Assembly: GCF_016908635.1 (NCBI RefSeq)
Contig: NZ_JAFBEG010000002.1
Span: forward strand, 83,725-115,724
Direction of reading: 5' to 3'
DNA length: 32,000 bases
Source: Sporohalobacter salinus
GTDB taxonomy: Bacteria; Bacillota; Halanaerobiia; Halobacteroidales; Acetohalobiaceae
Under the pieces are notes generated by a model. The model worked only from the letters and a program-made list of their open reading frames with translations, was not told the DNA's origin and made no database searches. Both the position numbers and the translations under genes were made by a program. Below, piece by piece: positions 3,500 through 31,960 of this stretch. Every line of letters begins with the position of its first letter. Position 1 is the stretch's first letter.

Positions 3500-3528
3500 G
3501 TATATTTATCTTGCCTCTGGAGATAATA
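3500..3528 (+). promoter_or_regulatory. Putative forespore sigma-F-type promoter upstream of the spoIIQ-like gene
   Basis: GTATA (3500-3504), N14, GGAGATAATA (3519-3528) compared with the recalled sigma-F consensus GYATA-N15-GGnnAnAHTR. The spacer is 1 nt short and the predicted TSS would fall right at the SD. Confidence 0.3.
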
Positions 3529-3547
3529 ATTGATGGAGGTGAGATAA

Positions 3548-9375: not shown

Positions 9376-9392
9376 TAAGCAGGTGATTTTAA

Positions 9393-9755
9393 ATGAAGAT
9401 TAATAGCGCACAAAGAATGAAGATGATGGCTGAAACATCTAAGATTCAGCAGCGCCAGCATAAACAGAATAAATTTAAAAATAAATTAGAGAAATTACAA
9501 CAGCAAAATTCAAAAGATGTAGTAAATGAAAATAAAGAATTGAAAAAGGTAACTAAGCAGTTTTCTAGTATATTTGTTGGGCTAATGTTAAAAGAAATGC
9601 GTAAAACTATACCTGACTCAGGTTATTTAGATGGTGGATTAAAGGAAGATATATTCAAAGACATGTTAGACCGGAAATATGCTAAAGAAATTTCTAATTC
9701 TAAACAGTTGAAATTAGCAGAGAAACTTTATCAACAGTTAAGCCAAAAGAGATAG
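9393..9755 (+). CDS. flgJ: Rod-binding protein (FlgJ N-terminal domain only, no muramidase domain)
   Basis: 120 aa. The Rod_binding pattern FSSIFVGLMLKEMRKT...FKDMLDRKYAKEIS...LAEKLYQQL is present. It sits after flgI. Confidence 0.72.
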   Translation: MKINSAQRMKMMAETSKIQQRQHKQNKFKNKLEKLQQQNSKDVVNENKELKKVTKQFSSIFVGLMLKEMRKTIPDSGYLDGGLKEDIFKDMLDRKYAKEISNSKQLKLAEKLYQQLSQKR

Positions 9756-9817
9756 TGAAATTGTATTAATATCTATTTTTAGGTCTTCTGGTGGTTAACA
9801 GAAGGGATGGGATTTAA

Positions 9818-11704
9818 TTGCGTAAGTATAGTATTATGATGTTAGTAATATTATTCTGTGTTTTATTAGTTACACCGGTAATGGCAAGTGATAATGCTGC
9901 TCCACAAGAAATTTTACCGGTTAATAAGATTGAAAAAGGAATGACTGGAATTGGAAAGACTGTTATATCAGGTACAGAAGTAGAAGAATTTAAAGCAAAA
10001 GTTCTAGGAGTTTTAAAGAAACAAGGTGTTAATCGTGATCTAATTTTAATTAAAGTTAGTGGAGATCTAATTGAAAAGACAGGTGGGATTGCTGCTGGTA
10101 TGAGCGGGAGTCCTATTTATATTAATGGGAAATTGATCGGCGCAATCGGTTATGGCTGGCAGTTAACTGAGCATAAAATAGGAATGGTAACGCCAATTAA
10201 AGATATGATGAATATTTGGCAGTTAGACGAAATTAAAGAAGGGACAACAGCTCAATTACCAGAGCCAGTAAAAATAAATGGTAAATCTGTAAAAAAGGTT
10301 TGTTTTAGTGCAGATAAGTTTAGTAGTAATCAATCTAATTCTTTAACTGCTTATCCAGTAAAGACGCCACTATTGGTTAGTGGTTTAGATAAACCAGCTT
10401 TGGATTACTTAAGTAAAGAGTTATCTGATTATGATTTAAAACCAGTTCAGGGTACAACTTCAGCAAAGATATCGAATAAAGAAAATGATAAATTAGTTCC
10501 TGGGAGTGCAATTGCGGTTCAATTGGTGAGAGGAGATATTGATATTTCGGCAATTGGAACCTTAACTTATAGAGAAGGAAATAAGATTTTAGGATTTGGT
10601 CATAGGTTTATGGGATTAGGTGATAGTAATTACTTTCTTTCTTCTGCTTATATTCATCATATGATTAAAAGTATGAAGATGCCTTTTAAGTTAGGAAGTC
10701 CATCAAACTTAAAAGGAATTATAAGCCAGGATCGATCAGCAGGAGTAGGAGGTACAATAGGTAAGTCGCCTAAAATAGTACCGTTAGAAGTGACTGTTAA
10801 AGATAAAGATTTAAATAGAGAGCAAAAAATTAATGCCCAAATAATTAGAAATGAGGAATTACTGCAGTCCTTAACTGGTTCAGTGATTTATCAGGCAATT
10901 AATAGTACTATTGACCGTCGCGGTGGTGGAACGGCTGAAGTGGAAATGGAGATTATGGCTAATAATTTAGAAGAGAATGTTATAAAACGCCAAAATATTT
11001 TCTATAGCCGTAGAGATGTAGGGGCCGTAGCATTAAGAGATTTTTCACAGGCACTAAGACTACTTACTCAGAATCCATTTCAGAAGATTAATTTGATAGA
11101 TGTAAAATTAAATGTAGATATTAAGGAAAGGCCGCAGGTTGCTTTAATTAGAGAAGTAAATGTATTAACAGATAAACTTAGACCAGGAAAAGAGGTAAAA
11201 TTAGAAGTTACCTTTCAGCCTTATCGTAAAGAAACGATAGTTAAAAATTATACCTTTACATTACCTAAAGATATAGAATCGGGGGTAGCTCATATGGAAT
11301 TAGTTGGTGGGCTTGAAGCTAACTTTACTGCTGAACAACAGCAGGTTAGATCTGAAGAAAAAGAATATGGCTATGGTAAGAATGAAACATTTAAGAATTT
11401 AGAAGAAGTCATAACTGCCTTTAAAGAACAGAAGATCAATAGTGATTTGGTGGTTAGGGTCTTTCCTAGTTATAATAGTCCTGAAGCAGTACCGGTTAAT
11501 AAAGACAGTACTGAAAAGAAAACTGAAGATACTAAAGATGAATCTACACCAAAAGCACAGGCCCGAGGGGTTGATTCTGAAGCTACAGGTACTTTAACGG
11601 AAGAGACTTTTAAGACGGATTATATTCTTGAAGGTAGAGTAAATACTGAAATTGATATTAAGCCGAAGGTTAAAGAGAAAAAGAAGGAAAAGACTGAAGA
11701 GTAA
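9818..11704 (+). CDS. Secreted peptidase S55 (SpoIVB-family) domain protein with atypical architecture
   Basis: 628 aa with a TTG start. Signal peptide ending VMA/SD. SpoIVB-like Ser-lobe motif GGIAAGMSGSPIYINGKLIGAIGYGW (aa 89-114). SpoIVB-like His-lobe motif AIGTLTYREGNKILGFGHRF (aa 245-264). About 300 further aa end in a K/E-rich tail. Confidence 0.75.
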   Translation: MRKYSIMMLVILFCVLLVTPVMASDNAAPQEILPVNKIEKGMTGIGKTVISGTEVEEFKAKVLGVLKKQGVNRDLILIKVSGDLIEKTGGIAAGMSGSPIYINGKLIGAIGYGWQLTEHKIGMVTPIKDMMNIWQLDEIKEGTTAQLPEPVKINGKSVKKVCFSADKFSSNQSNSLTAYPVKTPLLVSGLDKPALDYLSKELSDYDLKPVQGTTSAKISNKENDKLVPGSAIAVQLVRGDIDISAIGTLTYREGNKILGFGHRFMGLGDSNYFLSSAYIHHMIKSMKMPFKLGSPSNLKGIISQDRSAGVGGTIGKSPKIVPLEVTVKDKDLNREQKINAQIIRNEELLQSLTGSVIYQAINSTIDRRGGGTAEVEMEIMANNLEENVIKRQNIFYSRRDVGAVALRDFSQALRLLTQNPFQKINLIDVKLNVDIKERPQVALIREVNVLTDKLRPGKEVKLEVTFQPYRKETIVKNYTFTLPKDIESGVAHMELVGGLEANFTAEQQQVRSEEKEYGYGKNETFKNLEEVITAFKEQKINSDLVVRVFPSYNSPEAVPVNKDSTEKKTEDTKDESTPKAQARGVDSEATGTLTEETFKTDYILEGRVNTEIDIKPKVKEKKKEKTEE

Positions 11705-18045: not shown

Positions 18046-18585
18046 TTGAAAGGGGTTAAAAATATAATGTTGCAAGAAAAAAAATTAATTAAAATATTAG
18101 CATTGACATTAGTTTTAAGTGTAGGAGTGGGAGCAGTATTCTTTTTATCACCGCAGGTAAAGGCTAAGTCTGAAGTTGAGAAGGCAGTTGCTTATGTTGA
18201 TTTTGATAAAATATTGAAAAATCATCCTAAGCGAGATGAAATAGATACTCAGTTCAAACAATATTTTCAAAGCTTAAAAAAGCAGTTGAGTTCTGAATTA
18301 CAATCGAAGGTAAAAGATGTTAGTGGTAAAGAACGTCAGAAGTTATTGCATGATTATAATCAGAAGTTAAAGAACCAGATTGAACAGAAGAAAGCAGAAT
18401 TACTACAGCCGCTTAAGGAAGATATCAATACTACTATTAAAGAAGTAGCAGACCAGCAGGGAGTTGCCGTAGTACTCCATAAAGAGACGGTAATTTATGG
18501 AGGTAATGATTTGACAGATAAGGTCTTATCTGCAATTAAGAAAAAAGAAGAAAAAGATACTAAATCTAAGACTGAAAGTAATTAA
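18046..18585 (+). CDS. skp: OmpH/Skp-family periplasmic chaperone (paralog 1, SPase-I signal)
   Basis: Signal peptide ending QVKA/KS. Skp-like ends VAYVDFDKILKNHP... and ...VADQQGVAVVLHKETVIYGGNDLTDKVLSAIKKK flank a coiled-coil middle. The likely true start is ATG 18067 (MLQEKKLIK...). Confidence 0.8.
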   Translation: MKGVKNIMLQEKKLIKILALTLVLSVGVGAVFFLSPQVKAKSEVEKAVAYVDFDKILKNHPKRDEIDTQFKQYFQSLKKQLSSELQSKVKDVSGKERQKLLHDYNQKLKNQIEQKKAELLQPLKEDINTTIKEVADQQGVAVVLHKETVIYGGNDLTDKVLSAIKKKEEKDTKSKTESN

Positions 18586-18617
18586 GCAGCCGTGAGAAGC
18601 TTATTAGGAAGTGAGGG

Positions 18618-19796
18618 ATGAAGATGCGGCGCAAGTTTTGGTGGAAATTAGGAAGTCTGTTAATTATAGTTTTATTTCTGCTTCAGTTGGTTGGCTGTAA
18701 TAACAATTTAGCTACTAATGATTCTAAACAGAATAAAAATGTATCTAACAAAGATTCTCATCAAAGTAGTAAAGCTGTAGCTAATAAGATAGGAATAGTA
18801 GATCTAGAAAAATTAAAGGCAGTTCATCCTGAAGCAAAAAGATTAGAAGAATTAAACAAACAGATTAGGGATAACCAAGTTAACTTAGATGAGCAGCAGG
18901 GCGTTCTAAATCTTACTGCTCAAAATAGAGAAGAACATTTACAGAGTATTAATGAGCAGATAAATAAACGTCTTCAGGATATTAAATCAAAATATCAAAC
19001 TAAGATAGATGAACATGTGAAAGATACAAAGGAGAAATTAAATTCTTATAAAGAAAGTCTCAAGCAGCAGACGAAACAGAAGTTTAAAGAGAAAAAGGCA
19101 GAAATTAGACAAGAAATGGAAAATCAAATAAATGAAAAGAAAGAAGAGCATAGTAAGAAAATACAAAATTATCAGCAAAAGTTAAATAAGAAGTATAATA
19201 GGAAAATTTTAAATTTGAGATTAAAACTTCAAATGTTAAATTTGTCTGCTAAAGAACGCAAAAAGTATCAAAATCGTTTAGCAGAAGTGGAAACAGAACG
19301 TAAAGAAAAATTAAATAGTAAGAAAAAGGAATTTCAGAAAAAATTACAGGAATATGCTTCAAAGCAGCAGAAACAAGCAGAAGAAAGATTGCATTCTTAT
19401 CAACAAAAATTAACTAAGAAGATGCAGCAGAAAATAAATGCTAAAAAAGAAGAAGCTAATAAGGAATTACAGAATTATGTTAAAGAACAGAATCAGTTTT
19501 TACAACAGGAAATAAAAACAAAGAGAAAAAATCTAACTACTAAATTGCGGGATACAATTGTAGAAGCAGAGAAGAACCTGGATGATAACATTACAGAAAG
19601 AAATAGAGAATTAACAGATAATTTAAAGAAACTTAAAGCAGATAGAAAGAAATTAAAAAAGAAGATTAGAGAAGATATTAAGGAAAAGATATCTGAGGTA
19701 GCTCAAACTAAAGAGCTGCAGGTAGTATTGACTACTTCTAGTAAGAATCTATCTGCAATTAATATTACAGAGGATGTAGTTACTAAATTGAAGTAA
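18618..19796 (+). CDS. Expanded OmpH/Skp-like coiled-coil lipoprotein (paralog 2)
   Basis: 392 aa with lipobox LVGC. The Skp-like N-terminal edge (KIGIVDLEKLKAVHPEAKRLEELNKQ) and C-terminal edge (VAQTKELQVVLTTSSKNLSAINITEDVVTKLK) flank a K/Q/E-rich coiled coil of about 270 aa. ATG 18624 is an alternative start. Confidence 0.6.
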   Translation: MKMRRKFWWKLGSLLIIVLFLLQLVGCNNNLATNDSKQNKNVSNKDSHQSSKAVANKIGIVDLEKLKAVHPEAKRLEELNKQIRDNQVNLDEQQGVLNLTAQNREEHLQSINEQINKRLQDIKSKYQTKIDEHVKDTKEKLNSYKESLKQQTKQKFKEKKAEIRQEMENQINEKKEEHSKKIQNYQQKLNKKYNRKILNLRLKLQMLNLSAKERKKYQNRLAEVETERKEKLNSKKKEFQKKLQEYASKQQKQAEERLHSYQQKLTKKMQQKINAKKEEANKELQNYVKEQNQFLQQEIKTKRKNLTTKLRDTIVEAEKNLDDNITERNRELTDNLKKLKADRKKLKKKIREDIKEKISEVAQTKELQVVLTTSSKNLSAINITEDVVTKLK

Positions 19797-19827
19797 TGAG
19801 TTTACAATTTAGGAGGGGAATTTTTAG

Positions 19828-20244
19828 ATGAATAAAAGATTAAAATTATTATTAATCGGGTTGGCTGTTTTAATATTATTTACCGGTTGTACCCAGCAAA
19901 GCAAAGTAGCCGTTGTTGATATGCAGAAGATAGTAGAAAATAGTGATCGTATTCAAGATTATCAGCAGCAATTAGATAAAAAATTAAAAGAGCTACAGAC
20001 TGAATATAAAACTAAATTAAATAATATAGATGATGAAGAGAAATTAAAAGTAAAAAGAGAAGAAGCCTACCAGAAAAGCCAAAAGATTAAGTCAGATATT
20101 GAATCCAAAGTTAAAGCAGATATACAGAAGGTTATTAGTGAAATAGCTAAGGAGCAAGAAATAGATGTAGTATTAAATAAAAATGATGTTAAATATGGAG
20201 GAGTAGATATTACTGACCAGGTTATTAAGGCTTTAAAGAAATAG
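19828..20244 (+). CDS. OmpH/Skp-family chaperone lipoprotein (paralog 3)
   Basis: 138 aa with lipobox FTGC. Skp pattern: VAVVDMQKIVENSDRIQDYQQQLDKK...IAKEQEIDVVLNKNDVKYGGVDITDQVIKALKK. Confidence 0.75.
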   Translation: MNKRLKLLLIGLAVLILFTGCTQQSKVAVVDMQKIVENSDRIQDYQQQLDKKLKELQTEYKTKLNNIDDEEKLKVKREEAYQKSQKIKSDIESKVKADIQKVISEIAKEQEIDVVLNKNDVKYGGVDITDQVIKALKK

Positions 20245-21321: not shown

Positions 21322-21981
21322 ATGGTAGTTAGGAAAGAATTAAATATAATAATAATCACACTAATCGTTGGAGCAATGTTAATTACCACAGGTAATGCTT
21401 TTGCTGTTACTGCTTTTGAAGGTGGATTTAGCGGTTTGATTAAAACCCCTACTGCTAATGTCTTACCTTATAATAAAGCAGCAGTGGGATATCAACATAC
21501 TGACAGTGCCAATTTAGCTTCATTTAATTATGGAGTTTATGATAGTTTTGAATTAGGTTTAACAAATTATTGGTATGATGAAGACGAAGTTGAAGATGAT
21601 GATCTGTTTTTAAATGCTAAGCTACAATTGATGCAAGAAAATAATAATCAGCCAGCTGCAGCTATGGGGGTAGTAAATGAGGATTTTTATGGAGTAGTTA
21701 GTCAAAATTTAGATTACGGTTTAAGGGGACATATTGGACTTGGAGATGGAGATTTTGATGGCTTATTTGCAGGAATAAGTAAAACTCTTAATCCAGTAAC
21801 TATTTCTAGCGAAGGAAAGAATCAAACTCAGATACCGGTGACTACTTTAATGATGGAATATATTGATGAAGAATTTAATGCAGGGGCTAGATTAAAGTTA
21901 ACTCCACAGCTTAACTTTAATTTAGCATTAGAAGATCTATCTGATCTATCTGCTGGAATTAATTTTGAAACTCAGTTTTAA
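21322..21981 (+). CDS. Uncharacterised small predicted outer-membrane beta-barrel protein
   Basis: 219 aa. Signal peptide ending NAFA/VT. Amphipathic alternating segments (AAVGYQH, FNYGVY, FELGLTNYWY, LNFNLALE). The C-terminal OMP beta-signal-like end is SAGINFETQF with a terminal Phe. Very acidic. I recognised no family with confidence. Confidence 0.5.
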   Translation: MVVRKELNIIIITLIVGAMLITTGNAFAVTAFEGGFSGLIKTPTANVLPYNKAAVGYQHTDSANLASFNYGVYDSFELGLTNYWYDEDEVEDDDLFLNAKLQLMQENNNQPAAAMGVVNEDFYGVVSQNLDYGLRGHIGLGDGDFDGLFAGISKTLNPVTISSEGKNQTQIPVTTLMMEYIDEEFNAGARLKLTPQLNFNLALEDLSDLSAGINFETQF

Positions 21982-21999
21982 ATAAGAGTATAGTTTTGA

Positions 22000-22034
22000 T
22001 TAACCTCCCAAAATTAACTGGGAGGTTAATTTAT
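22000..22034 (+). terminator. Hairpin / probable weak terminator after the small OMP gene
   Basis: Perfect 11-bp stem TTAACCTCCCA (22000-22010) / TGGGAGGTTAA (22019-22029) with an 8-nt loop, followed only by TTTAT, a short U tract. Confidence 0.5.
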
Positions 22035-22069: not shown

Positions 22070-22098
22070 TTTACGCCTCTTATCTTAGATGGTATAAT
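22070..22098 (+). promoter_or_regulatory. Putative extended -10 promoter for the ABC module (and possibly lpxC-fabZ-lpxA...)
   Basis: TGgTATAAT (22090-22098) is a perfect extended -10. The weak -35 TTTACG (22070-22075) is at 17-nt spacing. Confidence 0.4.
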
Positions 22099-22112
22099 TA
22101 CAAGGGATAGGA

Positions 22113-24584
22113 GTGAAAACAGTGGATATTTTAAGACATAAATTCCGAAACGACTTATTAATTTGGCTGATTATTGTTGTTTTGGTTGGTAGTGGTTTAT
22201 CTGGAGGAATAGGTTATTTAGCTGATAATTACTTTGGGGATACTATGAATAATTTATTGGGAGATTACGGCAAGTATGACTTTTTACTAACAGTTAATCA
22301 GGAGATGACTGATTCTGCTGTTAGTGAAATAGAAGAGATTATTGAGCAGAAATTTCCTGGTTCAAAGTTAAAAAAAGGAATTACTGTAGCAGGAACAGTT
22401 AATTATTTTTTACAATTAGATGAAGAATTGCGTACTAAAGCTGTTTTTTCTAAGGTAGATGACCAATTTGAAGAGATAATTGGGGTTGATAATGTATCTC
22501 TGATGGCAGAACCTAAAATTTCTTTACAGGGAATGATTGGTGATACTAAAGATTTCTTTAATAAAAAGATAAGTAAGTTGCCTGAGGTTGATTTTATATT
22601 ATCTACTGGTTCAGGATTAGATATTATTTTAAAACAGTCTGCTGATTTGCAGGTAGTTACTGAAAAAATTGAAAATATTCTGGATAATTATAAGTTATTA
22701 CAGATTAGATTTCCAATTGCTCAATCACCACAGAAGATTACTGATTTGAATGTAGATTTGCGTCAAGAATTAAAAAAAGAATTTTCTTCACAACAGATTC
22801 AGAGTCTTAGTTCTGGTCAGCGAGAAAATTTAGATGACTTAATTAAGACAATGACTCAAATGAAGAAATTTCTTGTGGAATATGCTACTGTTGTTGAAGT
22901 CAAATTGCCTTCAAATTTAAAGGTTAGTTCAACTGAAACTTTTGCTTTAGCTAGTAAAGAAGATGGCTCACTATCTGTTGGAGATAAGATTACAGAAGAT
23001 ACAGTTCTTTTAACACCGCTGCAGAAAGAAGATGGATTATTGGAGTTAATTATTAGTCGAGGCGATGGTACTGAAATTGCAGGTCAAAATCTCTGCTTAG
23101 TTAGTCAAGAAGGGATAGTGAAGCGAAAACTGCAGGTGGCTAAGATACAGAAGCCGCGTTATTTGCTTAAGAAGGCTGTAGGAGAAACGAAAGAGTTAGT
23201 ACCTAAATTGACTTCGATTGTAAACAGTGCTGAAGAGGTTAATAAGAATTTTTCAAGCTGGTTAACAAAATATCAACAGGGAATAAGTCAAATTCAGCAA
23301 TTAAAAGAAAAGTTAATCAATCAGCAGAGCAAATTGACAAGTTTATCTTCAAATGGAAACATACAGGAGTTAGCAACAACAATAAATAATATTTCTACTA
23401 TTACTACTAACTTAGAAGAAACCATGACTCAGATGTACCAATTAAGAGAAAAATTAATTGATATTAATTCTAATTTTAAGAGTTTTGAGCGTAATATAGA
23501 AAAACAGATAGCTGCTTTATCTTTAGTAGGTGCTAAGAATGAAAGATTAAATAATCTGCGGGATTCAATTAATGCTTTACAGCAAAAGACAGATGGAAAA
23601 ATGAATACAATAATTAGCAGAATTAATTCCTACAATCCACTTTTAAATAAGTTACAAAAGTGGAATAATAACTTAGAAGCAATGCAAGATTTATTAAGTA
23701 CTACTTCTGATTTAGATTTAAATTCACCAAAAGTAAAAAGAACTTTTGGACAAGTAGTAGGAAATTTAGATGAGGTAATGACTAGTCTGGACAATATTAA
23801 TTATCCAGAATTAAAAGAAGAATTAGTAACATTAAAATCTGGTGTTGAAGATTTAAATCAGTTAAACTTTAAATTAATTATTAAAGAGTTAAATCATATG
23901 CAAAATGTCTTACCCAATCTTAAAGATGAAGAGATTACAGGAACAATTCAATTGCTGGATAAACATTTAGCTGGACAGGTTGTTCCAGGGAAAGTGCTTT
24001 ATTTTCTGGTCAACCAAAATATTAAGAAAGGTTCATTAGAGGCTAAAATTAATAATTATTTTGCAAATAAGAATCAGGATATTGAGTTGTTATTTACAAC
24101 GCCTGGTCTGTTGCAGCCTAATGTTAGGGGAGAGTTTTTTAGAATTTTAGGAGAAGTAAGAGCGGTTTTAACAGCAGTTATTGCCTTAGTTTTCACGGCT
24201 TTTGTATTATTTATGGATCAGTCTTTAGTTATGGTAACTATTCAACGAAGGAATAAACAGAAGAGTAATAGACTATTTAAAGCTTTAAATTCCAGTTATT
24301 TATACGGTTTTATACTAGGAGGATTATTGTTGAGCAGTATCTTTTACATTTCACAAGCGAAACTGCCATTTTTAAATCTTAAGTATATATTTATTATAGG
24401 TGGTGGTTTAGGTATACTAGCGGCTAATAAAGCAAGTTCTATTAATCCTCTTAATGAAGCTGAATTTTTGGCTGGAGAGGCACTAGGCTTAAACTATACT
24501 GAAATTATGCATGAGATTGTCATTCCTAAAGGAAGACCAGGGTTATTAACAATATTAAATAAAAGGAAGATGGTTTTTGAGTAA
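22113..24584 (+). CDS. Giant ABC-associated membrane protein with 1+3 TM topology and a roughly 645-aa coiled-coil-rich extracytoplasmic domain (FtsX/MacB-like architecture; unassigned family)
   Basis: 823 aa. TM1 is at aa 15-36 after a basic N-terminus. A long soluble region has heptad-like Q/N/L/K stretches. Three C-terminal TMs span about aa 684-771. Loop QRRNKQKSNRLFKALNSS and post-TM4 INPLNEAEFLAGE resemble FtsX-family landmarks. An EAA-loop-like tail follows. The partner ATPase gene is immediately downstream. The likely start is GTG 22122, since SD AGGAG (22109-22113) overlaps the track start. Confidence 0.5.
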   Translation: MKTVDILRHKFRNDLLIWLIIVVLVGSGLSGGIGYLADNYFGDTMNNLLGDYGKYDFLLTVNQEMTDSAVSEIEEIIEQKFPGSKLKKGITVAGTVNYFLQLDEELRTKAVFSKVDDQFEEIIGVDNVSLMAEPKISLQGMIGDTKDFFNKKISKLPEVDFILSTGSGLDIILKQSADLQVVTEKIENILDNYKLLQIRFPIAQSPQKITDLNVDLRQELKKEFSSQQIQSLSSGQRENLDDLIKTMTQMKKFLVEYATVVEVKLPSNLKVSSTETFALASKEDGSLSVGDKITEDTVLLTPLQKEDGLLELIISRGDGTEIAGQNLCLVSQEGIVKRKLQVAKIQKPRYLLKKAVGETKELVPKLTSIVNSAEEVNKNFSSWLTKYQQGISQIQQLKEKLINQQSKLTSLSSNGNIQELATTINNISTITTNLEETMTQMYQLREKLIDINSNFKSFERNIEKQIAALSLVGAKNERLNNLRDSINALQQKTDGKMNTIISRINSYNPLLNKLQKWNNNLEAMQDLLSTTSDLDLNSPKVKRTFGQVVGNLDEVMTSLDNINYPELKEELVTLKSGVEDLNQLNFKLIIKELNHMQNVLPNLKDEEITGTIQLLDKHLAGQVVPGKVLYFLVNQNIKKGSLEAKINNYFANKNQDIELLFTTPGLLQPNVRGEFFRILGEVRAVLTAVIALVFTAFVLFMDQSLVMVTIQRRNKQKSNRLFKALNSSYLYGFILGGLLLSSIFYISQAKLPFLNLKYIFIIGGGLGILAANKASSINPLNEAEFLAGEALGLNYTEIMHEIVIPKGRPGLLTILNKRKMVFE

Positions 24585-24617
24585 AAATTTAGTTTTAATA
24601 TTTAGAGATGATGTGAT

Positions 24618-25355
24618 ATGTTAATGTTAGAAGTAAACGAATTATATAAGGCTTATGATGAAGTGGAGATTCTTAAGGGAGTTAATTTTAGTATTGAACA
24701 AGGGGAAACAGTTATTATTATGGGACCTAGTGGTTGTGGTAAATCGACTACTATTCGCTGTATAAATCGTTTGACAGAACCAGACAGCGGTCAAATAATT
24801 TATAAGGGTTGTGATGTATTACAGTTAAGCAAATCCGAGCTTTTAGAAGTAAGGCAAGATATTGGTTTTGTTTTTCAAAATTTTCATTTGATAGATCGAT
24901 TAACAGTCTTTGATAATATCATGTTAGGTTTGTTCAAACAACAAGGACTATCGTTAGCTGAAAAAAAAGAGTTTGTTAGAGAGAGTCTAAAGCAAGTTCA
25001 ACTTAGTGAATTTAGTAATAGATATCCGCAAGATTTAAGTGGAGGTCAAAAGCAACGGGTAGCAATGGCTAGAGCTTTAGCTTTAAAGCCTGATTTGATG
25101 CTTTTAGATGAACCAACTGCTTCTTTAGATCCAATTTTAGTTAGAGAAGTTTTAGAGGTGTTGGAATCAATAACTACTAATCAGAATAGAACATTATTGA
25201 TTGTAACGCATGAAATAGATTTTGCTTATCGAGTAGCTGATAGAATTCTTTTGATGGATAATGGAAAGATAGTAGAAGAAGGGGCTCCAAAGAAGATTTT
25301 TGAGAATCCAAATTCAAAACTAGGTAAGAAATATAATAATTTGTTTAGAAGGTAA
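24618..25355 (+). CDS. ABC transporter ATP-binding protein, polar-amino-acid (GlnQ/HisP)-like sequence type
   Basis: 245 aa. Walker A GPSGCGKST, RCINRLTEPDSGQI, Q-loop FQNFHL, signature LSGGQKQRVAMARAL, Walker B LMLLDEPTASLDP and H-loop VTHEIDFA. Confidence 0.9.
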   Translation: MLMLEVNELYKAYDEVEILKGVNFSIEQGETVIIMGPSGCGKSTTIRCINRLTEPDSGQIIYKGCDVLQLSKSELLEVRQDIGFVFQNFHLIDRLTVFDNIMLGLFKQQGLSLAEKKEFVRESLKQVQLSEFSNRYPQDLSGGQKQRVAMARALALKPDLMLLDEPTASLDPILVREVLEVLESITTNQNRTLLIVTHEIDFAYRVADRILLMDNGKIVEEGAPKKIFENPNSKLGKKYNNLFRR

Positions 25356-25433: not shown

Positions 25434-26276
25434 ATGCGCACAGGTTCTGAGCAGCAGACAATTCAACAAGAATTTACTTATACAGGAATTGGTTTGCATA
25501 CAGGAAGTCAGGAAATAAATATGACTTGTAAGCCTTTAGCTGTTAATAGTGGTATTAGACTTAAAAGAGTTGATCTTCAATCTGAGCCGGAGATAGAAGC
25601 TACAGTCGATAATATAGTATCTACTAAACGGTCTACTTCTCTAGGAACTGAAGAGTGGCAGATAAGTACTGTTGAACACTTATTGGCTGCCTTAAATGTA
25701 TTAGGAATTGATAATCTTTTAATTGAACTTGATGCTGGTGAAGTGCCGGTAACTGATGGTAGCTCTAAGGTTTTTACAGAACTATTACAGAACGCCGGTA
25801 TAAAAAAGCAGAATGAAAAACGTGAAATTTATACTATTGAAGAAGCAGTTTGGGTTAGAGAAGAAGATACCTATTTAGTAGTTTTGCCTTATCCAGAGTT
25901 TAAGATTACTTATACTTTTGTTTCTAATCATCCGGCAGTAGGGAATCAATTTGGAGAGTTTACTATAGATAAGGATACTTTTGTTCATAAGATAGCTCCT
26001 AGTCGGACCTTTGGTTTTGCTAGTGAACTAGAAGCTTTGCAAAAGGAGGGGTTAGCTTTAGGAGGAAGTTTAGAGAATGCAGTTTTAATTGGGGAAAATG
26101 AAATTATTAATAATTTAAGGTTTAAGGATGAGATAGTGCGACATAAGATTTTAGATATAATTGGTGATATGGCTTTAATTAAGCCTTTTAAAGGACATAT
26201 TGTTGCGGTTCGTTCTGGACATGCTTTAAATAGAAAATTAGCTAGAAAAATTAAGCGGCAGGTGATGCCTTATTAA
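25434..26276 (+). CDS. lpxC: UDP-3-O-acyl-N-acetylglucosamine deacetylase
   Basis: 280 aa. QQTIQQEFTYTGIGLHTGS..., STVEHLLAALNVLGIDNL, PVTDGSS, RTFGF, HKILDIIGD and GHALN are LpxC hallmarks. Strong SD GGAGG. Confidence 0.95.
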   Translation: MRTGSEQQTIQQEFTYTGIGLHTGSQEINMTCKPLAVNSGIRLKRVDLQSEPEIEATVDNIVSTKRSTSLGTEEWQISTVEHLLAALNVLGIDNLLIELDAGEVPVTDGSSKVFTELLQNAGIKKQNEKREIYTIEEAVWVREEDTYLVVLPYPEFKITYTFVSNHPAVGNQFGEFTIDKDTFVHKIAPSRTFGFASELEALQKEGLALGGSLENAVLIGENEIINNLRFKDEIVRHKILDIIGDMALIKPFKGHIVAVRSGHALNRKLARKIKRQVMPY

Positions 26277-26300
26277 AAGTATATAGAAGGAGGATTAGGA

Positions 26301-26732
26301 ATGTTAGATATAAATGAGATTAAGGATATTTTACCACATCGTTATCCTTTTTTATTAATCGATAGGATTTTAGAATTTGAAGAAAAGGAAAGAGTTGTAG
26401 GTTTGAAGAATGTAACAGTCAACGAAGAGTTTTTCAATGGTCATTATCCTGGCCATCCAGTGATGCCTGGAGTATTAATTGTTGAGTCTATGGCTCAAGT
26501 AGGTGGTTTTGTTATGATGGATAGTAGTGACGAGGATAGGGAACAGCTTTCCTATTTTGCAGGGATTGACAAGGCTAGATTTAGAAAACCGGTTGTACCT
26601 GGTGACCAATTGAAGATTGAAGCTGAAGTTTTAAAATTAAGGGGAAGAATTGGGAAAATATCAGCTACAGCATCAGTCGATGGAGATGTTGCAGCTGAAG
26701 CTGAACTAATGTTTGCTATGCAAGATAAGTAA
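26301..26732 (+). CDS. fabZ: 3-hydroxyacyl-ACP dehydratase
   Basis: 143 aa. [14 protein letters not shown]...[26 protein letters not shown]...[17 protein letters not shown] is the canonical FabZ pattern. Confidence 0.97.
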
Positions 26733-26781
26733 TGAAAGTTATTTTTATTAGTGAGGAGTAATGATGGGAGGATAATAAATA

Positions 26782-27594
26782 ATGAAAGAAGTTAATAAGC
26801 AAAGCAATGTTCTTCACATATCTGAGGTGCATGAAACAGCAATTGTTAAATCGGGAGCTAAGATAGGGAAAGATGTAGAAATTGGTCCTTACAGTATCAT
26901 TGGAGAGAATGTTAAGATTGGTGAAGGTACAAAAATAGGTTCTCATGTAGTGATAGATGGCTGGACTGAGATTGGAAAGAATAATGAAATCTTTACCGGG
27001 GCTTCTATTGGGATGGAACCGCAGGATTTAAAATTTGATGGGGAAAAAAGTTTTTTAGCAATTGGAGACAATAATACAATTCGTGAGTATGCAACTATTC
27101 ATCGAGGAACTGAAGAAGGCGGGCTCGAAACAAAGATTGGTAATAATAACTTGATTATGGCCTACTGTCATGTGGCTCATGATTGTAAATTAGGTAATAA
27201 TATAAGGATGGCTAATGCCACTAATTTAGCTGGTCATGTGATAGTTGAAGATTCAGCAGTGATTTCAGGTTTAGTAGGTGTTCACCAATTTGTTAGAATT
27301 GGTAGAATGGCAATGGTAGGAGCTAATTCTAAAGTAGTTAAAGATATTCCGCCTTATATTTTAGTTGATGGTCATCCGGCGGCTGTTAGTGGAATAAATG
27401 TAGTTGGGTTAAGAAGAAATGGTGTCGAGCCGGAGTTGAGGAAAGAAATCAAACAAGCATATAAATATCTATATCGGTCAAGTCTAAACATTTCACAGGC
27501 AGTTGAGAAGATGGATCAAGAATTAGATAGCAGTCCTGAAATTGAGCATTTCTTACGATTCTTGCGTAATGCCCAGCGTGGAATTTGCAGATAG
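26782..27594 (+). CDS. lpxA: Acyl-ACP--UDP-N-acetylglucosamine O-acyltransferase
   Basis: 270 aa. Hexapeptide beta-helix, IREYATIHRGT, CHVAHDCKLGN, NLAGHV, and a C-terminal helical domain (GLRRNG...IKQAYKYLYRS). Confidence 0.95.
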   Translation: MKEVNKQSNVLHISEVHETAIVKSGAKIGKDVEIGPYSIIGENVKIGEGTKIGSHVVIDGWTEIGKNNEIFTGASIGMEPQDLKFDGEKSFLAIGDNNTIREYATIHRGTEEGGLETKIGNNNLIMAYCHVAHDCKLGNNIRMANATNLAGHVIVEDSAVISGLVGVHQFVRIGRMAMVGANSKVVKDIPPYILVDGHPAAVSGINVVGLRRNGVEPELRKEIKQAYKYLYRSSLNISQAVEKMDQELDSSPEIEHFLRFLRNAQRGICR

Positions 27595-27613
27595 ATTTTT
27601 TAGGAGGATAAGA

Positions 27614-28414
27614 ATGAATAAAGTAGGACTGATTGCCGGTAACGGGAGATTACCGCTTTATTTTGCTCAGGCGGCTAAGGATAGAAATGACGAAGTAGTG
27701 GCTATTAGTGTGACTGAGCAGGCTTTGGTTAATGAGTTAGATTCAATTGTAGATGAAAGTTATGAAATAAGTGTTGGAAAGTTGGATAAATTAATAAATA
27801 AACTGCAAGCGGCAGAAGTTGAAGAAGTGGTAATGGTAGGTAAAGTAAATAAAGATTTAATGTTTACTTTGGAATTTGATGAAAGAATGACTAAATTATT
27901 AATGAATTTGGATGAAAAAAATGATGATACCATTCTGTTGGCTTTAGTTGAGGAATTAGAAAAAGCTGGAATAGAGGTTAAAAAACAGACAACTTATTTA
28001 GAAGATTTACTGTCGCAGTCTGGAACTTTGACTGAAAGTGAGCCGTCTGCAGATATAATTAGTGATATGGAGTTTGGATTTAAGATGGCTAAAGGAATTG
28101 GCGGTCTGGATATTGGTCAGACAGTTGTAGTTAAGGATAGGGCTGTAATAGCAGTAGAAGCTATTGAGGGAACTGATCAAGCTATTTTACGTAGTGGTCA
28201 ATTAGCTGATGGAGTAGTAGCAGCTAAAGTTAGCAAACCAGAGCAGGACTTTAGGTTTGATATTCCTACTGTTGGGAAAAATACAATTAAGAACTTAATT
28301 GAGGTTGGAGCTTCAGGACTTGTGATTGAAGCTAAAAAGACTTTTATTTTAGATCGTAAGGAAGTATGTCAGTTAGCAGATAGAGCAGGAATTCCGATTG
28401 TAGCAATGAGGTGA
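27614..28414 (+). CDS. lpxI: UDP-2,3-diacylglucosamine diphosphatase, LpxI type (DUF1009)
   Basis: The start is placed at ATG 27614 (SD TAGGAGG 7 nt upstream) rather than the track start 27542, which overlaps lpxA. Motifs: GLIAGNGRLPL..., GGLDIGQTVVVKDRAVIAVEAIEGTDQAI, AKVSKPEQDFRFDIPTVG. It lies between lpxA and lpxB. Confidence 0.85.
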   Translation: MNKVGLIAGNGRLPLYFAQAAKDRNDEVVAISVTEQALVNELDSIVDESYEISVGKLDKLINKLQAAEVEEVVMVGKVNKDLMFTLEFDERMTKLLMNLDEKNDDTILLALVEELEKAGIEVKKQTTYLEDLLSQSGTLTESEPSADIISDMEFGFKMAKGIGGLDIGQTVVVKDRAVIAVEAIEGTDQAILRSGQLADGVVAAKVSKPEQDFRFDIPTVGKNTIKNLIEVGASGLVIEAKKTFILDRKEVCQLADRAGIPIVAMR

Positions 28415-28418
28415 AAAG

Positions 28419-29567
28419 ATGGCAACGGTGTTAGTAGTAGCTGGAGAAGCTTCTGGAGATCTACATGCTGCTCATGTGATTAAAGAGATGAAGAAATTAC
28501 ATTCTGAATTAAATTTTATTGGTCTTGGTGGGGATAAGATGGCTGAGGCCGGGGTTGATATTATCTTTGATCCTACAGAGTTAAGTACTATTGGCTTTGT
28601 AGAGGCGTTAAAACATTTAAGATTGATGTATAAAGTACTGAATCAATTAGAAGAAGTAATTAAAGAATATAAGCCGGATGTAGCTTTGTTAGTTGATTAT
28701 TCTGGTTTTAATTTAAAAGTAGCTAAATTAACTAATAAATATGAAGTTCCTACAGTAAATTATTTTGCTCCTTCAGCCTGGGTTTGGGGTAAGTGGCGGG
28801 CAAAAAAGATGGCTCGTCGTCAGGCTAAGATTGCTTCAGTCTTTCCTATGGAAGCGGAAGTTTATCGTGAAGCTGGAGCAGAAGTTAATTTTGTTGGCCA
28901 TCCTTTATTGGATATAGTTGAGCCTGAATTAACTTCAGAGGAGTTAGCCTGTAGGTTGAATATAAATTCTGATTCGGAAGTAATTGGGATTTTACCTGGT
29001 AGTAGAAAACAGGAAATTGAGAAATTGTTGCCGTCTATGTTAGAAGCGGCTGAAATAATAGCAGCTAAGCGAAAGAAAGTAGAATTTGTTTTGCCGGTAG
29101 CTGAAACAGTCTCTCAACAATTAGTTGAAAGGATAATTAATAATTATCAAGTGGAGATTAAATTAATTTCTGGTTATTCTTATGCTGTTATGGAATTAGC
29201 TCGGCTTCTACTGGTAACTTCTGGAACTGCTACTTTAGAAGCAGCCTGTCTAAATACACCTATGGTTATCACTTATCGAACTTCTCTACTTACCTGGTGG
29301 CTAGGAAAATTATTAGTTAAGATTCCCTATGTTGGATTACCAAATATTATTATGGATAGAGAAGTAGTGCCAGAGCAGCTTCAAGAAGATGTTAGCGGAG
29401 ATAAGATTGCTAAATCTAGTTTAGAGATATTGAATTCAGATAATTATTATCAACAGATTAAGCAAGATTTGTCTCAGGTAGTGACTAAGTTAGGGAATGA
29501 AGGAGCAACTCAGCGGGTAGCTCAGATGGTATTAAAAACTGGAGGAGTGACTATAGATTGGAATTAG
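28419..29567 (+). CDS. lpxB: Lipid-A-disaccharide synthase
   Basis: 382 aa. VAGEASGDLHAAHVIKEM..., GLGGDKM, PGSRKQEI and SGTATLEAA are LpxB hallmarks. Confidence 0.95.
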   Translation: MATVLVVAGEASGDLHAAHVIKEMKKLHSELNFIGLGGDKMAEAGVDIIFDPTELSTIGFVEALKHLRLMYKVLNQLEEVIKEYKPDVALLVDYSGFNLKVAKLTNKYEVPTVNYFAPSAWVWGKWRAKKMARRQAKIASVFPMEAEVYREAGAEVNFVGHPLLDIVEPELTSEELACRLNINSDSEVIGILPGSRKQEIEKLLPSMLEAAEIIAAKRKKVEFVLPVAETVSQQLVERIINNYQVEIKLISGYSYAVMELARLLLVTSGTATLEAACLNTPMVITYRTSLLTWWLGKLLVKIPYVGLPNIIMDREVVPEQLQEDVSGDKIAKSSLEILNSDNYYQQIKQDLSQVVTKLGNEGATQRVAQMVLKTGGVTIDWN

Positions 29568-31294
29568 TTAAACGAATATTGACTTATGTTAAACCTTATC
29601 GGAAACGATTAGTAGCAGCAGTTGCATCAATGATTCTCCATTCCCTGTTAACAATCCTCTTTATTAAAGGTTTCCAAGATTTAATTGATACTATGATCAA
29701 CAATATTTCTAATAGCGGCGAAGGATTTATTAAGTTAAGCTGGGTAGCAGCAGGGATTGTTGTTGTTTATTTCTTTAAGGGAGTTGCTTATTATGGACAG
29801 AAATATTTGACTTCTTATGTAGCCCAGCGGGCAATTATGGATATTAGAAATGATCTTTACCGTCATTTACAGGATCTTTCTTTGAGTTTCTATGATGAGA
29901 TGAAGACAGGACAGATTATGTCGAGAGTAACAAATGATGTAGGTAAATTACAGAGTGCTATTGTTTCGGGAGCAATTAGCATTTTTTATAAAGCCTTTAC
30001 TTTAATTGCCGGGCTTGGTTATTTATTTTATTTAAGTTGGCAGCTTTCACTTGCGGTATTGTTTATCTTTCCACCGGTAACCTATGTATTCATTAAGTAT
30101 AATCGCCGAATAAGAAAAGTAAGCCGCAGGGTGCAAGCCAGAATAGCAGATGTTACTGATATTTTGCAGGAAACGATTACCGGTGTTAGAATAGTTAAGT
30201 CCTTTACTCAGGAAGATTATGAGTATGATAAATTTAGTCAAGAAAATCATGCTAACTTTCGGGCTAATATGAAAAATACACAGTTAAGTGCTAGCTTAAC
30301 ACCAATTGTAGAGATTTTAGCTTCTTTTGTTTTTACTTTTGTTTTATGGTATGGAGGCTACCAGGTGATGAAGGGACAAATGACACCTGGAGAATTACTT
30401 GCTTTCTTTACATTGTTGATTACTATTTCTGGTCCAATTAAATCCCTTAGTAAGTTATCAAGTACTATTCAGAAAGCTTTAGCAGCAGCAGATAGAATCT
30501 TTGAGATTATAGATTTAGAGGTTGAGATTAAGGAGAAGGAAGATGCTATTAAGCTTGAAAAAACTGAGGGTAAAGTGGAGTTTAAGGATGTTTGGTTTAG
30601 TTATAATGAAGAAGAGATGGTCTTAAAAGATATTAATTTAACAGCAAATCCAGGTGAAGTGGTAGCTTTAGTTGGCCCTAGTGGAGCTGGGAAGTCGACT
30701 TTAGTCGATTTAATTCCGAGATTTTATGAGCCCCAGAGCGGAGAGGTATTATTAGATGGATATAATATTGAAGATTTGACTATTAAATCACTACGTAGCA
30801 AGATAGGGATTGTTCCCCAAGATAATATTCTCTTTGGCGGAACTATCGGGGATAATATTGCTTACGGTGATTTAGATAAAGAACAAGAAGAGATTATTAC
30901 AGCAGCTAAAGCAGCTAATGCTCATGACTTTATTATGGAATTTCCTAATGGCTATGATACTAAAATTGGTGAGCGAGGAACCGGATTATCCGGTGGGCAG
31001 CGTCAACGAGTTTCTATTGCTCGAGCTATCTTGAATGATCCTAAGATATTGATTCTTGATGAGGCTACTTCTGATCTCGATACTGAATCAGAAGCCTTAG
31101 TTCAGGAAGCTTTAGATAGATTAATGGAGGAGAGAACGACTTTTGTTATTGCTCATAGGTTGTCCACTATTCTAAATGCTGACAAGATAGTAGTTTTAGA
31201 TGAAGGGGAGATTGTAGAGCAAGGCACACATGAAGAATTATTATCCCAACAAGGTTTATATAGCCATCTTTATGAAATGCAGTTTAATGATTAG
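29558..31294 (+). CDS. msbA: Lipid A/LPS flippase-type ABC exporter (fused TMD-NBD), MsbA-like
   Basis: 578 aa. Six-TM exporter domain plus an NBD (GPSGAGKST, LSGGQRQRVSIARA, ILILDEATSDLD). The TTG start overlaps the lpxB stop by 10 nt. It sits in the lipid A operon. Confidence 0.85.
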   Translation: MELVKRILTYVKPYRKRLVAAVASMILHSLLTILFIKGFQDLIDTMINNISNSGEGFIKLSWVAAGIVVVYFFKGVAYYGQKYLTSYVAQRAIMDIRNDLYRHLQDLSLSFYDEMKTGQIMSRVTNDVGKLQSAIVSGAISIFYKAFTLIAGLGYLFYLSWQLSLAVLFIFPPVTYVFIKYNRRIRKVSRRVQARIADVTDILQETITGVRIVKSFTQEDYEYDKFSQENHANFRANMKNTQLSASLTPIVEILASFVFTFVLWYGGYQVMKGQMTPGELLAFFTLLITISGPIKSLSKLSSTIQKALAAADRIFEIIDLEVEIKEKEDAIKLEKTEGKVEFKDVWFSYNEEEMVLKDINLTANPGEVVALVGPSGAGKSTLVDLIPRFYEPQSGEVLLDGYNIEDLTIKSLRSKIGIVPQDNILFGGTIGDNIAYGDLDKEQEEIITAAKAANAHDFIMEFPNGYDTKIGERGTGLSGGQRQRVSIARAILNDPKILILDEATSDLDTESEALVQEALDRLMEERTTFVIAHRLSTILNADKIVVLDEGEIVEQGTHEELLSQQGLYSHLYEMQFND

Positions 31295-31312: not shown

Positions 31313-31960
31313 ATGAAGCGGATTAAGACCTATTTGATTTATCTAGTAGCTTTAATTTTAGTAACGGTGACTAATTTGACTTTGCGTCTACAGGTTACTG
31401 GTGAAAAAAAGGTTAAAAGATTAAAACAGCAAGGAAAGAATTTAATCTTTGCTTTCTGGCATGGTAAAATGCTAGTTCCTATTTATTATCTACGCCATCG
31501 TGGTTATTATGGTTTAGCTAGCCGTAGTAGAGATGGTGAGTATATCAGTAGAGTCTTAAAGAAGCTAGGTTGGAATGTAGTTCGCGGCTCTACTTCTCGT
31601 GGAAGTGTACGAGCATTGTTGAAGTTAATTAAGGTCTTAAAGCAGGGGGAAGATGTTGCTATTACACCTGATGGTCCGCGTGGTCCGCGGCATACCACTA
31701 AAGCTGGTGCTGTTTATTTAGCTAAAAAGAGCAGTGATAGTTTAATTATTCCAATAGGAGTAGCCTTTACTAACAAGAAGGTAATTAACAGCTGGGATCG
31801 ATTTAATCTTCCATATCCATTTACGAAAGGAAGCCTATTTTTTGGAGATCCAATTGAAGTAAGTAGTGATGCTGATGAAGACCAGATAGAAACTAAACGT
31901 AAGCAAGTAGATAATGCATTGAAGACTGCTTTTAAGAAGGCAGAACAATCATTAAATTAA
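31313..31960 (+). CDS. DUF374-domain protein (lysophospholipid-acyltransferase-like, typically Kdo-transferase-associated)
   Basis: 215 aa with an N-terminal TM. FAFWHGKML...SRSRDGEYISRVLKKLGWNVVRGSTSRGS...ITPDGPRGP matches the DUF374 pattern as I recall it. Confidence 0.75.
   Translation: MKRIKTYLIYLVALILVTVTNLTLRLQVTGEKKVKRLKQQGKNLIFAFWHGKMLVPIYYLRHRGYYGLASRSRDGEYISRVLKKLGWNVVRGSTSRGSVRALLKLIKVLKQGEDVAITPDGPRGPRHTTKAGAVYLAKKSSDSLIIPIGVAFTNKKVINSWDRFNLPYPFTKGSLFFGDPIEVSSDADEDQIETKRKQVDNALKTAFKKAEQSLN

Follow-up and report, generated by a model that had tools for sequence, protein, structure and literature searches.

The locus described here lies in a 32,000-nucleotide stretch of Sporohalobacter salinus DNA (NZ_JAFBEG010000002.1, positions 83,725 to 115,724 of the forward strand), which is called the window below and has a G+C content of 33%. 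The genes of interest are two adjacent open reading frames (ORFs) on the plus strand: 22113-24584, which starts with GTG and encodes a large membrane protein of 823 aa, and 24618-25355, which encodes a stand-alone ATP-binding cassette (ABC) ATPase of 245 aa. The ORF coordinates agree with the spacer of 33 nt given in the original prediction, a first reading of the sequence that had regarded the pair as an uncharacterised ABC module among lipid A and outer membrane (OM) genes. The pair is situated between lpxD and lpxC, and all the lipid A genes on its 3' side are co-oriented with it. The features of the module are listed below, together with the evidence for each.

22113..24584, plus strand: gene of the large membrane subunit, 823 aa from the first GTG and 820 aa from the GTG at 22122
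22155..22211, plus strand: hydrophobic core of transmembrane (TM) helix 1, residues 15-33, within a helix of residues 11-49 in the AlphaFold2 (AF2) model, a stalk reaching past the membrane
22281..23150, plus strand: extracytoplasmic alpha/beta region, residues 57-346 (about 290 aa; AF2, predicted local distance difference test score (pLDDT) mostly >90)
23154..23969, plus strand: helical bundle, residues 348-619 (about 270 aa), four long antiparallel helices of about 55-63 aa each (AF2)
23994..24116, plus strand: second beta-alpha-beta unit, residues 628-668, directly ahead of TM2 (AF2)
24123..24428, plus strand: TM2-TM4, residues 671-772 (hydropathy, AF2)
24456..24569, plus strand: C-terminal cytoplasmic EAA loop, residues 782-819, AGEALGLNYTEIMHEIVIP...GRPG, putative ATPase coupling element
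24618..25355, plus strand: ABC ATPase, 245 aa, GlnQ/polar-amino-acid-importer type (Pfam ABC_tran, NCBIfam, blastp)

The large protein is probably 820 rather than 823 aa long. Because the Shine-Dalgarno sequence AGGAG (22109-22113) overlaps the first GTG, the GTG at 22122, which lies 8 nt after AGGAG, is the likelier start; the resulting N-terminus (MDILRH...) agrees with those of the homologues. Hydropathy analysis placed the TM cores at residues 15-33, 682-700, 728-746, and 753-771, leaving about 648 residues between TM1 and TM2. By the positive-inside rule, the N-terminus, the TM2-TM3 loop (6 K/R), and the C-terminus are cytoplasmic, and the long middle therefore faces outward. The same orientation was obtained independently of hydropathy: natural fusions to a C-terminal nucleotide-binding domain (NBD), described below, fix the C-terminus in the cytoplasm and therefore place the large domain outside. 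These three lines of evidence agree with the 1+3 TM layout and the roughly 645 extracytoplasmic residues that had been predicted.

A full-length AF2 model was built with an alignment of 65 sequences and had a pLDDT of 89.2. In this model, the alpha/beta region opens with a beta-alpha-beta unit right after TM1 and includes a 7-strand beta region at residues 260-346. The helices of the bundle (348-410, 417-470, 477-530, and 539-599, plus 605-619) extend over about 80-95 Å. TM2 is a 46-residue helix (671-716) in which D702 is invariant; the basic cytoplasmic loop contains a short helix (720-725), and three short cytoplasmic helices (782-790, 795-806, and 811-819) follow TM4. The protein had at first been described as a giant coiled coil that could span the periplasm. 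We dropped this idea, as AF2 instead predicts a folded-back antiparallel bundle of about 90 Å on the alpha/beta fold. When the whole model was compared with PDB structures by Foldseek, the search was dominated by the bundle and gave generic long helical bundles only (ClyA, AhlC, and designed bundles). Because the distal loops of the bundle (about 411-416 and 531-538) are polar and poorly conserved, they are unlikely to form a tip that inserts into a membrane as in ClyA. MCE, Wzz, and HlyD domains were also considered and found no profile support: the Wzz, GNVR, MlaD, and MlaE Pfam models were unmatched, and the lone MCE signal was a weak match to TIGR00996 (Mce, E 0.021) on helices 467-580. 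The large protein reached no Pfam or NCBIfam cut-off, and the same was true of the family members scanned.

The ATPase matched Pfam ABC_tran with an E value of 1.3e-38, and its top NCBIfam matches were GlnQ, ProV, TcyN, and PhnC. Its Walker A, Q-loop, LSGGQ, Walker B-E, and H-loop motifs are intact, and no extra regulatory domain was found on its 245 residues. In blastp, E. coli GlnQ was nearest (45% identity, 213 bits), and the lowest scores were those of LolD (136 bits), FtsE (132 bits), and the MacB NBD (126 bits). With the LptB encoded in the same loci, it shares only about 30% identity. Both NCBIfam and blastp thus place it with GlnQ/HisP rather than with LolD/FtsE/MacB, as had been proposed.

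The EAA-loop region is the best-conserved part of the large protein (majority-residue frequency 0.60), and the protein stops right after it. The C-terminal consensus is E-x2-A-G-x-A-L-G-L-x4-I-M-R-E-I-V-I-P-x-G-R-P-G-L. The motif after TM4, INPLNEAEFLAGE, had been taken for an FtsX/MacB/LolC-like feature; it proved to be the start of a classical type I EAA loop, cytoplasmic and preceded by an out-to-in TM helix as in type I permeases. For the hhalign comparisons, genuine E. coli K-12 permeases were used as the type I reference set (MetI, GlnP, HisQ/M, ArtQ/M, and PotB/C/H/I), and LolC, LolE, FtsX, and the TM domain of MacB as the type VII set. The type I set gave a probability of 95.4% and an E value of 1.7e-8 over the 41-column EAA loop, versus 0.7% for a reversed-profile control and 14.7% for the type VII set. 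A PDB profile search with the C-terminal 164 residues yielded 11 matches, 8 of which were type I permeases (PotC, MetI, an Art permease, and PotB) aligned on their EAA loops. Furthermore, the spacing pattern A-[AGS]-x3-G-x9-[IVL]-x-[LIVM]-P was present in 62 of 65 family members, in 7 of 10 type I permeases, and in none of the 4 type VII proteins. The closest EAA motif was that of GlnP (AGLALGLSRWETIRYVILP versus AGEALGLNYTEIMHEIVIP in the window protein). In Pfam, the sole recurrent signal other than coiled coils was BPD_transp_1, found in 6 of 21 members scanned; it was sub-threshold with the C-terminal fragment of the window protein (E 0.035, 14.3 bits), and the gathering score was not reached by any of the 21 (best 18.4 bits versus a cut-off of 26.4). 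Independently of these searches, the names given to members in IMG (amino-acid or arginine ABC permease) point to the same ancestry. At the level of sequence, the only demonstrable homology of the module is to the coupling loop and the motor of a polar-amino-acid importer.

The resemblance to a permease ends abruptly. In the family, 17-29 residues (median 18) follow the motif, versus 77-90 residues, forming two TM helices, in ten E. coli permeases. These two pore-completing helices are missing in all members, and the AF2 model shows only the short terminal helix 811-819 at this position. Neither the window nor the inspected loci had a gene for a substrate-binding protein in the neighbourhood of the pair, and no SBP_bac signal was obtained among the 21 members at E<=1. 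The short tail after the EAA motif, the four TM helices, and the lack of a binding-protein gene in the inspected neighbourhoods support the view that the module is probably not an importer.

The TM helices themselves were compared using a separate, confident model of residues 620-823 (pLDDT 91.2). Foldseek found no significant PDB neighbour for this model. Its top three matches were type I permeases, namely ArtQ (4yms_C, E 0.34, TM-score 0.31), PotC, and OppB/C. The sole type VII match was FtsX (8x61_C) at rank 13, with an E value of 5.3 and a TM-score of 0.18-0.22; the set searched was rich in MacB, LolCDE, FtsEX, and YbbP structures. Pfam FtsX (PF02687) and MacB_PCD (PF12704) gave no match even at E<=1 among the 21 members.

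Homologues were collected by a profile search of 1.84 billion cluster representatives (50% clustering), which gave a family of 187 representatives with lengths of 570-990 aa, 107 of them at E<=1e-30. The cluster members of 30 representatives were mostly environmental sequences. A word-indexed search gave six relatives, from Acetohalobium (74%), Selenihalanaerobacter (51%), and metagenome-assembled genomes (MAGs), and just those six proteins again when it was repeated with the 65-sequence alignment. A search seeded with the Sporomusa acidovorans member gave 223 proteins, all of them "hypothetical" and none with a precomputed Pfam domain; a few bear spurious names (Smc, YjgD, and "ABC-type amino acid transport system permease"). 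The majority-residue frequency was 0.44-0.45 in the first 205 residues, whose length is about constant, 0.22 in the helical middle (122-278 aa), 0.41 in TM2-TM4 (91-117 aa), and 0.60 in the last 51 residues (50-52 aa). Within the outer domain, residues 50-205 have a fixed length and are well conserved (0.44) and residues 206-347 are more variable (0.29). Of all parts, the bundle shows the lowest conservation and the greatest variation in length across the family. A full-length match to a characterised system was sought as a refutation of the claim that the module is uncharacterised, and none was found; the pair goes unmentioned in two papers dissecting this gene cluster (PMC5007114, PMC13018214).

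We surveyed the loci of 80 species-representative genomes, with 148 confirmed matches to the family alignment. The ATPase gene was directly 3' of the large gene in all 78 loci where the contig allows the comparison (median gap about 32 nt), and L090 and L091 have an overlap of 7-8 nt between them. In addition, five natural fusions of 930-990 aa (P0150-P0154) join the large protein, with its EAA-like loop, through a linker to the same GlnQ-like NBD. Two fusion genes, L087 4466-7300 (944 aa) and L088 6001-8961 (986 aa), come from genomes of 72-76% G+C and occupy the same position ahead of lpxC. The invariable adjacency, the overlaps, and the fusions support the conclusion that the large protein and the ATPase are one machine. 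In L088, the public gene call is a 268-aa minus-strand ORF where tblastn finds a plus-strand lpxC (9025-9831), which is probably a miscall in high-GC DNA.

The lipid A context is also strongly conserved. The gene after the ATPase was lpxC in 63 of 75 loci, the order lpxC-fabZ-lpxA-lpxI-lpxB-msbA followed in the same proportion (63/75), and lpx, bamA, or msbA genes were present in 68 of 80 loci. The association with lipid A and OM genes, proposed from one window, is thus real and much stronger than the window by itself shows. Sporomusaceae-type Negativicutes have the order bamA, three skp genes, lpxD, a YjbH-like OM protein (OMP) gene, LpxL, the pair, lpxC, fabZ, lpxA, lpxI, lpxB, and msbA. In Limnochordia-type MAGs, the pair heads lpxC, fabZ, lpxA, lpxI, lptC, lptA, lptB, and lptFG, and the fusion-bearing high-GC genomes have lptFG, an LptD-like gene, lptC, lptA, the fusion, lpxC, fabZ, lpxA, lpxI, and lpxB. 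Even the most divergent members (P0147, P0031, and P0035) keep the same lipid A context. No monoderm context was found among the loci surveyed, which agrees with the proposed tie to OM-bearing lineages. Four bins of PRJNA950955 (L007, L010, L042, and probably L001) are labelled Betaproteobacteria, Bacteroidota, Patescibacteria, and Syntrophothermus; these labels look unreliable because the bins carry the Firmicute-type operon (pair, lpxC, fabZ, lpxA, lpxI). Five loci (L003, L004, L006, L088, and L090) have a second, divergent LpxB-like glycosyltransferase gene between lpxB and msbA, with about 25-28% identity to the window LpxB.

The phyletic limits of the pair were drawn from the spacing of lpxC and lpxD, deduced from the order of accession numbers in the supplement of Antunes et al. 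(PMC5007114). Three genes lie between them in Acetohalobium and four in Acetonema, Pelosinus, Sporomusa ovata, and Thermosinus, in agreement with the loci surveyed here. One gene lies between them in four Veillonella species (where it is waaM/LpxL), Megamonas, Mitsuokella, Selenomonas ruminantium, Phascolarctobacterium, and Succinispira, and none in three Halanaerobium species. The family searches gave no named protein from the genera with 0 or 1 intervening gene. The module is thus restricted to certain lineages, namely Halobacteroidaceae, Sporomusaceae-type Negativicutes, and Limnochordia-type organisms, and its carriers would appear to be free-living, largely spore-forming diderm Firmicutes. 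The lineage had been said to lack the Lol system. This is wrong for Halanaerobiales, all of which have LolA and LolCDE, while Negativicutes lack them (Antunes et al. 2016, PMC5007114). Hence, we rejected the idea that the pair replaces Lol, since Halanaerobiales possess LolA and LolCDE and yet carry the pair.

In the window itself, which corresponds to the conserved diderm-Firmicute envelope locus of Antunes et al. 2016 (PMC5007114), the following features flank the module.

21322..21981, plus strand: gene of a YjbH-like small OM beta-barrel, 219 aa, directly 5' of the pair
21998..22031, plus strand: stem-loop with a 13-bp perfect stem, directly 3' of the stop codon of the YjbH-like OMP gene, terminator-like and followed by UUUAU
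22070..22098, plus strand: promoter-like site TTTACG-17 nt-TATAAT with TG upstream (extended -10; TTTACG-17-TGgTATAAT), a consensus match only
25434..31294, plus strand: lipid A genes lpxC, fabZ, lpxA, lpxI, lpxB, and msbA, context outside the module

The stem-loop has a dG of -20.4 kcal/mol (z = -5.0), and none of 200 shuffled sequences was equally stable; a consensus terminator scan missed it because its T-run is short. From the putative promoter, the pair appears to head a transcription unit running into lpxC-fabZ-lpxA-lpxI-lpxB-msbA. The YjbH-like gene is kept directly 5' of the pair in Halanaerobiales, and together with the LpxL gene in Sporomusaceae-type Negativicutes. The Acetonema longum orthologue, F7NM17, has been given as a predicted 12-strand OMP (PMC13018214), and the YjbH-like protein is a possible OM partner of the ABC module.

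On the 5' side, the nearer genes are tamB, bamA, three skp paralogues, lpxD, and the YjbH-like OMP gene, and those farther away are murA, spoIID, an M23 peptidase gene, flgF/G, flgA, flgH, flgI, and genes for a rod-binding protein and an S55 peptidase. On the 3' side, the lipid A genes up to msbA are followed by a gene for a DUF374 protein. The three Skp/OmpH paralogues are successive (18046-20244), a layout kept in the Negativicutes loci; the middle one (18618-19796, 392 aa) has a long apolipoprotein-like helical N-terminal extension ahead of its OmpH domain. Between bamA and the first skp, two Negativicutes-type loci (L091 1634-2887 and L092 1096-2373) have a protein of about 420 aa with no Pfam match, the position of SonA in PMC13018214; in the Halobacteroidaceae-like window, skp directly follows bamA, with no gene there. 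The DUF374 protein (31313-31960, 215 aa), directly after msbA, has counterparts of 65-71% identity at the same position in the Halanaerobiales loci L075 and L078. The listed lpxI ORF (TTG at 27542) overlaps lpxA by 53 nt (27542-27594), and the real start is probably 3' of the lpxA stop codon because the NCBIfam LpxI match begins at residue 27. Sporulation-type genes at 2606-4438 and 9818-11704, encoding SpoIID, a SpoIIQ-like M23 peptidase, and a protein of 628 aa that contains an S55 peptidase domain of the SpoIVB type, bracket the flagellar P/L-ring genes just 5' of tamB-bamA. One stretch of DNA thus combines genes for sporulation, a diderm-type flagellum, and OM biogenesis.

On balance, we consider it somewhat probable that the module is a GlnPQ-derived ABC system that has turned into a periplasmic mechanotransducer with a target related to lipopolysaccharide (LPS). 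We infer that the two gene products form one ABC complex, presumably 2:2, which acts by mechanotransmission. This complex would descend from an importer of the GlnPQ type (polar amino acid, type I) and would since have lost the ability to import. Its membrane subunit would have retained one anchor helix at the N-terminus along with three TM helices and the EAA loop docking into the ATPase. It would have lost both of the pore-lining helices found after this loop in every real permease, and would have gained an extracytoplasmic domain of about 620 residues between TM1 and TM2. Binding and hydrolysis of ATP by the GlnQ-like ATPase dimer would be relayed via the EAA loop and the long TM1 and TM2 to the outer domain, so that the site of work would be the periplasmic side of the cytoplasmic membrane, as for MacB, FtsEX, and LolCDE, with no passage of solute through the subunit. 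The target would most likely be nascent LPS or lipid A, or else a factor in the periplasm or the OM that takes part in LPS/OM assembly or in its feedback control, because the pair is locked between lpxD and lpxC and is co-oriented with msbA and sometimes with lpt genes.

Several points weigh against this account. Beyond the 41 columns of the EAA loop, no known ABC fold resembles the TM helices significantly (lowest Foldseek E value 0.34, TM-score about 0.3); the TM body is far from any solved fold, and the EAA loop could be recruited or convergent. The docking of the loop into the ATPase is postulated from homology, and the substrate is not identifiable from operon position alone. A second copy of the pair, with no lpx neighbours, is present in some genomes of Sporomusa and Pelosinus (loci L046, L055, L056, L058-L060, L062, L063, L065, L067, L072, and L074). 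Finally, there is no room for the pair at the locus in Veillonella, Megamonas, Mitsuokella, Selenomonas ruminantium, Phascolarctobacterium, and Halanaerobium. Because it is missing there in lineages that make LPS OMs, the pair would serve an accessory and not a core step of the LPS pathway. A general requirement of the diderm-Firmicute OM was ruled out by the lack of space in the Veillonella, Selenomonas, Megamonas, and Halanaerobium loci. As regards the second copies, that of Sporomusa rhizae (L063) follows an operon for TetR, an HlyD-type membrane fusion protein (MFP), and an AcrB-type resistance-nodulation-division (RND) transporter; an MFP-RND link was rejected as a general feature, as it is present in L063 alone among the paralog loci.

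The alternative that survives best, although we regard it as unlikely, is that the pair is a divergent true member of type VII (MacB/FtsEX/LolCDE), whose C-terminal 'minor coupling helix' converged on, or swapped in, an EAA-like sequence fitting a GlnQ-type ATPase. Such a system would operate exactly as FtsEX or LolCDE do, and would activate a periplasmic enzyme or extrude LPS, lipoprotein, or phospholipid from the outer leaflet. The hallmarks of type VII, including four TMs with a large extracytoplasmic domain between TM1 and TM2, were defined in PMC5985334, and in the AF2 model the topological ones all appear to be matched at the level of secondary structure. TM1 and TM2 are helices of 39 and 46 residues, longer than the bilayer, and may serve as stalks. 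The predicted beta-alpha-beta units right after TM1 and right before TM2, on either side of the inserted domain, may correspond to the two such motifs of the type VII porter subdomain, which are joined directly to the TM1 and TM2 stalks. A short helix lies in the TM2-TM3 loop, and another helix follows TM4. Furthermore, hhalign puts TM2-TM4 in register with LolC 251-399, and the setting in envelope biogenesis is shared with MacB, FtsEX, LolCDE, and YbbAP. The pair and the type VII systems alike have too few TMs for a pore, and work is therefore expected in the periplasm. However, the LolC alignment is the one with a probability of only 14.7%, the FtsX and MacB_PCD models stay silent, Foldseek of the C-terminal model reaches FtsX alone among type VII proteins, and the ATPase is of the importer class and scores lowest against LolD, FtsE, and MacB. 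The resemblance to FtsX/MacB/LolC noted originally thus holds for topology and fails for sequence and fold. In addition, the dominant coupling element of the family is the C-terminal EAA loop and not a TM2-TM3 major coupling helix, and its outer domain, with the long helical bundle, is 2-5 times larger than in type VII.

A narrower version of the LPS-related role, which seems to us improbable, is that the module is a feedback sensor or regulator of the committed step of lipid A synthesis, analogous to E. coli YejM/PbgA-LapB-FtsH. The position of the pair immediately 5' of lpxC in those 63 of 75 loci, and an overlap of 4 nt between the ATPase gene and lpxC in L091, would suit such a role; an LpxC regulator in diderm Firmicutes is undescribed in the literature searched, and accessory regulation would suit absence from reduced, host-associated lineages. 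All of this evidence is positional, however. The EAA loop makes up nearly all of the cytoplasmic surface of the membrane subunit, so that the output would have to pass through the ATPase, which carries no additional regulatory domain, and we know of no precedent for an ABC ATPase controlling LpxC.

That the module is still a polar-amino-acid importer or sensor, with the outer domain as a fused, highly diverged substrate-binding module and the lipid A position incidental or serving precursor supply, is very improbable: the nearest relatives of its EAA loop and ATPase are indeed GlnP and GlnQ, IMG names some members amino-acid or arginine ABC permeases, and the SBD-TMD fusions of lactococcal GlnPQ, in which substrate-binding domains precede the TM domain, are a precedent for periplasmic domains fused N-terminally, but the two helices after the EAA loop are missing throughout, no SBP_bac signal was obtained, and the lpx/lpt synteny is too conserved across deep lineages to be incidental.

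Returning to the GlnPQ-derived mechanotransducer, its likeness to known systems is partial in each case. With the type I importers of polar amino acids (GlnPQ, HisQMP, and ArtQMP) it shares the EAA loop with the spacing A-[AG]-x3-G-x9-[IV]-x-[LIV]-P, and, as in GlnPQ-type importers, separate membrane and ATPase subunits are encoded side by side, the ATPase being 45% identical to GlnQ. In contrast, the TM helices of type I permeases do not align significantly with those of the family, which has its outer domain inserted after an extra N-terminal TM, has no binding-protein gene, and is set in a lipid A rather than a nutrient-uptake operon. LptB2FGC, the type VI LPS extractor acting on the periplasmic leaflet, is likewise an ABC system in or near LPS clusters, and certain loci have lptFG, an lptD-like gene, lptC, and lptA directly 5' of the pair or the fusion. 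The family differs from it in having no LptF_LptG domain (PF03739) or beta-jellyroll signal, and lptB and lptFG are present as genes of their own alongside the pair. Wzz, Wzc, and MCE/PqiB-type proteins are membrane-anchored periplasmic proteins of LPS, capsule, or lipid pathways that combine an alpha/beta or beta base with helical hairpins or bundles of about 100 Å. They are architectural analogues only, as neither group has ABC coupling via an EAA loop.

Taken together, the pair is an ABC system whose architecture is undescribed among the ABC types compared: it combines the motor and EAA loop of an importer with a truncated partner of four TMs and a giant periplasmic domain. A farther-reaching proposal, possible but more doubtful than the descent and general role favoured above, is that a type VII-like mechanotransducer driven by the motor and EAA loop of an importer constitutes a new ABC class, serving an unrecognised ATP-dependent step of LPS/OM biogenesis or homeostasis that is specific to free-living, mostly spore-forming diderm Firmicutes (Sporomusaceae-type Negativicutes, Halobacteroidaceae, and Limnochordia). 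Such a step may be the periplasmic handling of LPS after MsbA, feedback on LpxC, or the rebuilding of an OM from inner-type membrane at germination.

Diderm Firmicutes are central to the debate on the origin and loss of the OM, and their OM cluster has been catalogued repeatedly (PMC5007114, PMC13018214). The conserved ABC pair in the middle of the lipid A operon nevertheless has neither a family model nor a name and goes unmentioned in the literature searched. Should it act on LPS or LpxC, envelope biogenesis would have a new ATP-dependent step or checkpoint with no proteobacterial counterpart. If the proposed descent is true, the mechanotransmission design, in which a four-TM ABC partner does work outside the membrane, would have evolved at least twice, here from an amino-acid importer. 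The patchy presence of the pair (in Sporomusa, Pelosinus, Acetonema, Halobacteroidaceae, and Limnochordia, and absent at the locus in Veillonella, Selenomonas, and Halanaerobium) offers a comparative handle on its function, and the pair is a good candidate for an accessory step, so far missing, in the construction or control of the LPS outer membrane.

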